A stretch of DNA of 34,744 nucleotides from a virus. Lineage: Duplodnaviria > Heunggongvirae > Uroviricota > Caudoviricetes. The translations under genes were made by a program, and so were the position numbers. The notes below the pieces were generated by a model. It worked only from the letters and a program-made list of their open reading frames with translations, was not told the DNA's origin and made no database searches. How positions within the stretch are numbered: the stretch's first letter is position 1; each line of letters starts with the position of its first letter. Location: IMG/VR virus record IMGVR_UViG_2574180160_000007; one strand, 5' to 3'. Below, piece after piece: positions 1 through 275 of the stretch.

Positions 1-182
1 ATGGCCATATCAATGATTTTCTGGTGCGTACCGGGTTGAGAAGCGGTGTAAGTGAACTGCAGTTGCCATGTTTTACGGCAGTGAGAGCAGAGATAGCGCT
101 GATGTCCGGCAGTGCTTTTGCCGTTACGCACCACCCCGTCAGTAGCTGAACAGGAGGGACAGCTGATAGAAACAGAAGCCAC
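1..182 (-). CDS. insA: IS1 InsA (5' portion only, runs off window edge)
   Basis: Minus-strand frame starting about 182 gives (M/V)[59 protein letters not shown]..., matching my recollection of InsA. Confidence 0.6.
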
Positions 183-237
183 TGGAGCACCTCAAAAACA
201 CCATCATACACTAAATCAGTAAGTTGGCAGCATCACC
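1..237 (-). mobile_element. IS1: IS1 insertion sequence, left end only (truncated by window edge); terminal inverted repeat at about 215-237
   Basis: Reverse complement of 1-237 reads GGTGATGCTGCCAACTTACTGATTTAGTGTATGATGG...CCAGTGGCTTCTGTTTCTATCAGCTGTCCCTCCTGTTCAGCTACTGACGGG..., which I recognise as the canonical IS1 terminus and insA 5' region. Confidence 0.8.
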
Positions 238-275
238 ATATTAATGAAACAATGCAACGCAACGGGAGAAATAAC

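Follow-up and report, generated by a model that had tools for sequence, protein, structure and literature searches.

IS1 is classically polar, and the gal and lac IS1 mutants associated with Saedler, Starlinger and Shapiro are reportedly the classical polar insertions in operon leaders. The element can also act in a fusion promoter, as where it lies upstream of acrEF and blaTEM, and at bgl and flhDC silencing is relieved by an IS inserted upstream of a promoter that stays intact. A terminator within IS1 was described by Huebner, Iida & Arber (1987). Hybrid promoters form where the end of the element meets a correctly spaced −10 element (Prentki et al., 1986, as cited in PMC8764528 and PMC9330008), and the outcome of IS1 insertion upstream of a gene is site-dependent: expression of osmB was down about 4-fold, that of ugd stayed the same, and that of afaA in E. 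coli ST131 was raised only where a good −10 element was well spaced (PMC8764528). IS1 also mediates adjacent (replicative) deletions (Reif & Saedler, 1975; Turlan & Chandler, 1995, both as summarised in PMC9330008), which typically keep the element and lose the direct repeats (PMC9330008).

The stretch of DNA analysed here, 34,744 nt in length and referred to below as the window, begins inside an IS1 element whose tip is separated by 38 nt (238–275) from the ATG of yciG at 276, and it shares traits with each of these systems. As in the polar gal and lac insertions, the element separates an operon's promoter from its first gene and, by analogy, would impose 768 nt of untranslated read-through, but in this case the relevant strand of the element yielded no intrinsic terminator in our scan. 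As in the IS1 fusion promoters, an inverted repeat abuts the upstream region, with an outward −35 element and a −10-like hexamer 18 bp from it; however, the candidate −10 element is weak (4/6 matches), and the insertion lies in the 5′ UTR, so that it also disconnects the native promoter and does not merely add to it. The likeness to adjacent deletions is seen in strain 600055, in which IS1 is intact, one of its ends sits on new DNA, and 282 bp plus one copy of the target duplication are gone. Finally, the spacer resembles the targets of IS1 and IS5 upstream of the H-NS-silenced bgl and flhDC in being an AT-rich, reportedly H-NS-repressed region that is repeatedly targeted in natural isolates. 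Other insertions in this spacer fit the bgl and flhDC geometry, whereas the insertion in the window is downstream of the promoter.

The IS1 end and the yciGFE operon

Positions 1–237 of the window (minus strand) are the left-end segment of IS1, covering IS1 positions 237–1. They are 100% identical to the 768-bp IS1 copy of E. coli strain 600029 (reverse-complement positions 532–768) and encode InsA Pfam domains, which bears out the first-pass annotation in calling this segment IS1. The tip, ...GGCAGCATCACC, ends at position 237. The 23-bp left terminal inverted repeat, IRL (GGTGATGCTGCCAACTTACTGAT; 215–237, minus strand), matches the IRR of the full 600029 copy at 18 of 23 positions and is accompanied in the window by 214 further bases of the element. 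These include the 5′ part of insA (1–182, minus strand), with its GTG start at 182 and its first 60 codons, which runs away from yciG; translation of 3–182 on this strand gives the Pfam domain Zn_ribbon_InsA (E 8e-22) and the start of HTH_Tnp_IS1. The consensus scan also picked out a promoter-like sequence in IRL, CTGCCA-16-TATGAT (203–230, minus strand), which would fire leftwards, away from yciG, and which we take to be at the position of the IS1 insA promoter P-IRL (Machida & Machida 1989).

The first 126 bp of the element are the same as in IS1A, and position 127 of IS1 is the sole difference between window 1–237 and an IS1A copy; over the full length, identity to copies annotated as IS1A or IS1B is 94.5–95.2% (about 95%). 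In strain 600029 the full copy occupies positions 1970–2737 of the retrieved locus (L003) and encodes a 91-aa InsA with both Zn_ribbon_InsA and HTH_Tnp_IS1, and an InsB with the DDE_Tnp_IS1 domain (E 1e-74). The A6C frameshift site, AAAAAAC, is at IS1 position 307, outside the window, and RefSeq annotates the element as an IS1 family transposase with programmed frameshift. Length and inverted repeats, InsA and InsB′ frames, A6C site, 9-bp target duplication and isoform identity all place the element in the IS1 family, and the 600029 copy, being full-length with intact insA/insB′, is apparently active. IS1 is abundant in these genomes, with at least 28 to 40 matching places per genome record, that is, dozens of copies.

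To the right of the junction lie three intact genes on the plus strand: yciG (276–455), encoding a 59-aa general stress protein with KGG repeats (Pfam KGG), yciF (541–1041; 166 aa) and yciE (1087–1593; 168 aa), the last gene of the yciGFE transcription unit. The order yciG, yciF, yciE (DUF892/ferritin-like) and the location downstream of trpA confirm the yciGFE operon layout. The protein accessions of all three are unaltered, that of YciG (WP_000807651.1) being the same as in strains without IS1. Intact genes are compatible either with a recent event or with an operon that is still in use.

In IS1-free strains, for example strain 600468 (locus L002), the spacer between trpA and yciG is 380 bp long with a G+C content of 36%, against 48–54% in the surrounding DNA, and at least 80% of it was found in 4710 of 5426 complete E. 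coli genomes. When the window was aligned to this reference spacer, the match began at 238, with none before, so that 1–237 is not native DNA; the coordinates proposed from the sequence at first pass, with the IS1 tip at about 237, the start of yciG at 276 and a gap of about 38 bp, were all correct. The 38 nt at 238–275 (plus strand) are thus a remnant of the native yciG 5′ UTR, identical to L002 3009–3046, and contain the Shine–Dalgarno sequence GGGAGA (264–269).

An Rfam search of the native E. coli spacer gave nothing near threshold. A 5′-terminal hairpin in the E. coli yciG leader beside the insertion point was considered and rejected, since the predicted fold of the leader is less stable than that of shuffled sequence (−7.8 kcal/mol, z +2.5). 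Beyond Escherichia and Salmonella, in the yciG leaders of Enterobacter, Klebsiella, Citrobacter, Leclercia, Pseudocitrobacter and Kosakonia (L012–L023), a conserved CUGAACGACAAC motif in the 5′ UTR precedes a hairpin of 7–11 bp. The stem varies by genus with changes on both sides (GAUACGA/UCGUAUC, GAUGCGAA/UUUGCAUC and GGAGAU/AUCUCC), and the E. coli leader is without a stable equivalent of this CUGAACGACAAC-linked hairpin.

The native promoter and the insertion in strains 600029 and 600055

Two public data sets of transcription start sites, both from one laboratory, locate the native start of yciG. Kim et al. (2012; PMC3415461, supplement) list a single start site at NC_000913.2 1314114(−) with a 55-nt UTR, the upstream sequence that they print ending at L002 position 2992, and for the transcription unit yciG;yciF;yciE the start given by Cho et al. 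(2014; PMC3923258, supplement) is 1314116(−). Together these put the start site 55 or 57 nt upstream of the ATG. Mendoza-Vargas (2009) has a primer for yciG but gives it no start site. Directly upstream of the mapped start are TTGACT (L002 2956–2961), a 16-bp spacer and TAATTT (L002 2978–2983); the C before this last hexamer and the TAA after it are features of the sigma-S type. We aligned yciG upstream regions from 16 enterobacterial species, drawn from Escherichia ruysiae, Salmonella, Enterobacter, Klebsiella, Citrobacter, Leclercia, Kosakonia and Pseudocitrobacter. The −35 element TTGAC is present in 13, a one-base variant occurs in two and one does not fit; a −10 element of the form cTAnnnT followed by T(A/T)A is kept in most of the 16, and the flanking sequence has diverged. 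The supplement of Cho et al. (2014; PMC3923258) further tabulates yciG expression in two sets of three columns that bear no labels, with values of about 10.8 in one and 6.6 in the other; if read as wild type and rpoS mutant respectively, these would correspond to about 15-fold RpoS dependence in K-12. Given the start-site data, the conservation across species and this expression table, the assignment of a sigma-S-type promoter to yciG is well supported. Our consensus promoter scan of the native spacer found no site, since the sigma-S −10 element TAATTT shares only 3 of its 6 positions with TATAAT; the promoter was therefore placed by start-site data and conservation instead. An inverted repeat, CTCATTA-N11-TAATGAG (L002 2966–2990), overlaps the −10 element and start site of the E. 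coli promoter and, from its sequence, is a possible operator; its conservation does not extend to Salmonella.

The window does not have this promoter directly upstream of yciG, as a start site 55–57 nt from the ATG would demand: beyond 38 nt it has IS1. How this may have come about is seen in strain 600029, a simple insertion with a 9-bp target-site duplication, ATATTAATG, at both IS1 ends (L003 1961–1969 and 2738–2746). The right copy corresponds to window 238–246. In native DNA the target is L002 3009–3017, at −38 to −30 from the ATG, which falls at +18 to +26 or +20 to +28 within the 55–57-nt leader. IS1 is thus inside the yciG 5′ UTR, between the promoter and the ribosome-binding site; the position upstream of the promoter that was implied at first pass does not hold, since the start site is at −55/−57 and the element lies in transcribed DNA. 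The native promoter of 600029 is intact and is 777 bp farther from yciG. The strand of insAB is opposite to that of yciG, so that transposase transcripts extend toward trpA, in convergence with those from the yciG promoter.

In strain 600055 the right junction is identical to that of 600029 and the element (L001 5470–6237; 768 bp) is 99.87% identical to the 600029 copy. Its IRR end, however, adjoins ...GCCGGAAAAAT, 32 nt beyond the stem of the trp terminator. The left flank stops at native position 2726 and the right flank resumes at 3009, so that L002 2727–3008 (282 bp) and the left copy of the duplication are absent and there are no direct repeats; the loss includes the promoter, the start site and all upstream regulatory DNA. 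A whole element, a loss that begins exactly at one IS end and missing repeats are what an IS1-adjacent deletion leaves in the sequence. Had two IS1 copies inserted in this spacer recombined with each other, the outcome would look no different, and sequence does not tell these routes apart. An initial reading based on 600055, in which IS1 had replaced 282 bp, was dropped because 600029, which is closer to the window, has a simple insertion. Set side by side, 600029 and 600055 record two successive steps, the insertion and then an IS1-adjacent deletion. The separation of the operon from its native control region, proposed at first pass, is borne out by the 777-bp displacement in one strain and the deletion in the other; the wording ‘displaced or replaced’ covers both, and the window on its own fits either.

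Of 5426 complete E. coli genomes, only two contain the junction between IS1 and yciG (GTTGGCAGCATCACCATATTAATGAAACAATGC) in a single unbroken match: those of 600029 and 600055, two strains isolated from human stool samples in Bangladesh. An exact match to the junction was sought in a collection of metagenome contigs, with 0 matches, and the identical YciG protein sits in the native layout in each of ten other public assembly contexts (10/10). Window 1–3200 differs from 600029, the closest genome, at one base and has the same downstream gene layout, unlike 600055, from which it diverges after about 1770. The window is therefore more likely, on sequence comparison, to be in the 600029-type state, with the left IS1 end lying outside it. 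Base 1595, just past the yciE stop codon, differs from both strains, so that the window is neither record exactly and derives from a close relative or a different assembly. We regard the insertion as an ordinary IS1 event at a previously undescribed site.

The remainder of the window is a lambdoid prophage, which has cut ompW to a 3′ remnant (about 1653–1778) and extends to 34744. It carries genes for tail fibre proteins, gpJ, tape-measure protein, capsid, portal and terminase, and a tRNA-Arg(tct) at 34351–34427. Direct repeats of about 90% identity (2317–2532 and 3367–3581) are fragments of a tail-fibre-assembly gene and flank a gene for a class I SAM-dependent methyltransferase (2693–3361), which looks like a small inserted cargo gene; in this region strain 600055 has an extra ash/Rha block. 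A tandem repeat of 162 bp (54 codons; 4.3 copies, 96% matches) lies at 20500–21194 in the portal-gene region, and the window apparently has one unit more than strain 600029, whose portal gene is annotated as frameshifted.

The same spacer has received IS1 in other strains. Within about 850 bp of yciG, IS1 was found in the same orientation in 18 genomes and in the opposite orientation in 20 more, these 38 being defined by one joined place that covers at least 80% of a query made of the IS1 end plus yciG. About 19 of the 5426 genomes have the element in the spacer itself, as judged by a match span under about 1040 bp, and 9 were mapped. The mapped insertions occupy at least seven distinct sites and both orientations, and an adjacent deletion accompanies two of them. 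The further cases (loci L004–L007, L089 and L090) have right flanks, relative to the ATG, at −137 (with a 116-bp adjacent deletion, in strain 23CRST009), −161, −176, −255 (with an 8-bp duplication), −302 and about −317. Apart from 600029 and 600055, all mapped insertions are at least 80 bp upstream of the transcription start site. A site 123 bp upstream of the window junction has apparently been used in both orientations, going by match spans only, and by a rough estimate spacer insertions are about 5-fold above uniform expectation.

Predicted effect on yciGFE expression and alternative readings

From its position between yciGFE and the operon's own promoter, IS1 probably leaves the operon without its usual stress control, and we favour, with some reserve, a strong reduction or loss of RpoS-dependent (sigma-S-dependent) yciGFE expression as the outcome. 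Any transcript begun at the native promoter would first run through 768 nt of IS1 in antisense, none of it translated, before reaching yciG, and the polymerases producing it would meet insA transcription head-on. The scan for intrinsic terminators inside IS1 on the yciG strand found none, so polarity would rest on Rho, an assumption taken over from classical IS1 genetics. The plus strand inside IS1 has a C-rich, G-poor stretch of about 280 nt (C 32–37%, G 20–28%) that is a possible Rho loading region, and this stretch together with the classical polarity of IS1 would make premature termination likely. Control of yciGFE by sigma-S, H-NS and YncC/McbR would then be largely lost through IS1 polarity, with the remaining expression coming from read-through or from a weak junction promoter. 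In 600055, the later IS1-adjacent deletion would have removed a promoter that was already displaced, and the loss of the promoter without gene decay in that strain fits a promoter that had already been uncoupled.

The alternative that survives best, and one that we still consider doubtful, is that the junction has created a hybrid sigma-70 promoter that drives yciGFE constitutively or more strongly, without RpoS, H-NS or McbR control. The consensus scan does recover a candidate, TTGGCA-18-TGaAACAAT (224–253, plus strand; 9/12 matches plus an extended −10 TG), with a predicted start near window 259–261. Its −35 element, TTGGCA (224–229), lies in IRL, faces outward and is 8 bp from the tip, and PMC8764528 documents an outward −35 for the inverted repeat of IS1, in addition to the formation of hybrid promoters with a correctly spaced −10 that was introduced above. 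The TG (245–246) and the −10-like AACAAT (248–253) are in native DNA; the hexamer has only 4/6 matches and the spacer is 18 bp, a combination at about chance level. The scan gave 2 sites per 600 bp against 1.2 expected in shuffled sequence, and by a rough estimate a −10 element of this quality would occur at a usable spacing with a chance of about 10%. The −35 element also shares bases in IRL with the divergent insA promoter and with the site bound by InsA and, with dozens of IS1 copies in these genomes, occupancy by InsA is likely. In the ST131 study, moreover, only one of three IS1 insertions brought activation (PMC8764528). The three operon genes are intact, and 600055 has lost its native promoter without gene decay, both of which speak for a junction promoter. 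The larger proposal, that a working hybrid sigma-70 promoter makes yciGFE constitutive and that the spacer is a recurrent, selected IS1 target like bgl and flhDC, draws support from the repeated spacer insertions at seven or more sites and in both orientations, but appears rather improbable; were this constitutive rewiring real, the step from 600029 to 600055 would capture an insertion and then the loss of the promoter.

The insertion might instead be phenotypically neutral and reflect the preference of IS1 for AT-rich intergenic DNA in an IS1-rich genome, which we judge distinctly improbable. The yciGFE operon has been reported as H-NS-repressed. It is said, in work attributed to Beraud et al. 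2010, to be poorly expressed in E. coli owing to H-NS silencing, and in an operon already poorly expressed a moved or lost promoter would change little. The low G+C content of the spacer (36% against 48–54% around it), the dozens of IS1 copies in these genomes and the presence of IS1 in the spacer of about 19 of the 38 genomes with joined matches, 9 of them mapped, are all in keeping with neutrality. Against it, the columns of Cho et al., if they are wild type and rpoS mutant, would make yciG clearly expressed in K-12 and about 15-fold RpoS-dependent, and the yciG promoter is conserved across genera. The insertion in the window is, in addition, the only mapped spacer insertion between promoter and gene, and the position of all others at least 80 bp upstream of the start site fits selection against breaking the link between them. 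That positions 1–237 are native intergenic DNA or an assembly artefact has a negligible chance of being right, given complete identity to IS1 with InsA domains, a different native spacer in 4710 genomes, and the recurrence of this junction in two genomes assembled independently, of which one has a perfect 9-bp duplication.

The insertion is useful for annotation; it challenges no current view and opens no long-standing question. If the favoured reading, loss of RpoS-dependent expression through IS1 in the leader, is true, a small lineage of human-gut E. coli from Bangladesh would have freed a conserved stress operon from RpoS by a single IS1 hop. With a sister strain that has erased the promoter, it would be a natural case of two-step, IS-driven regulatory decay or rewiring.
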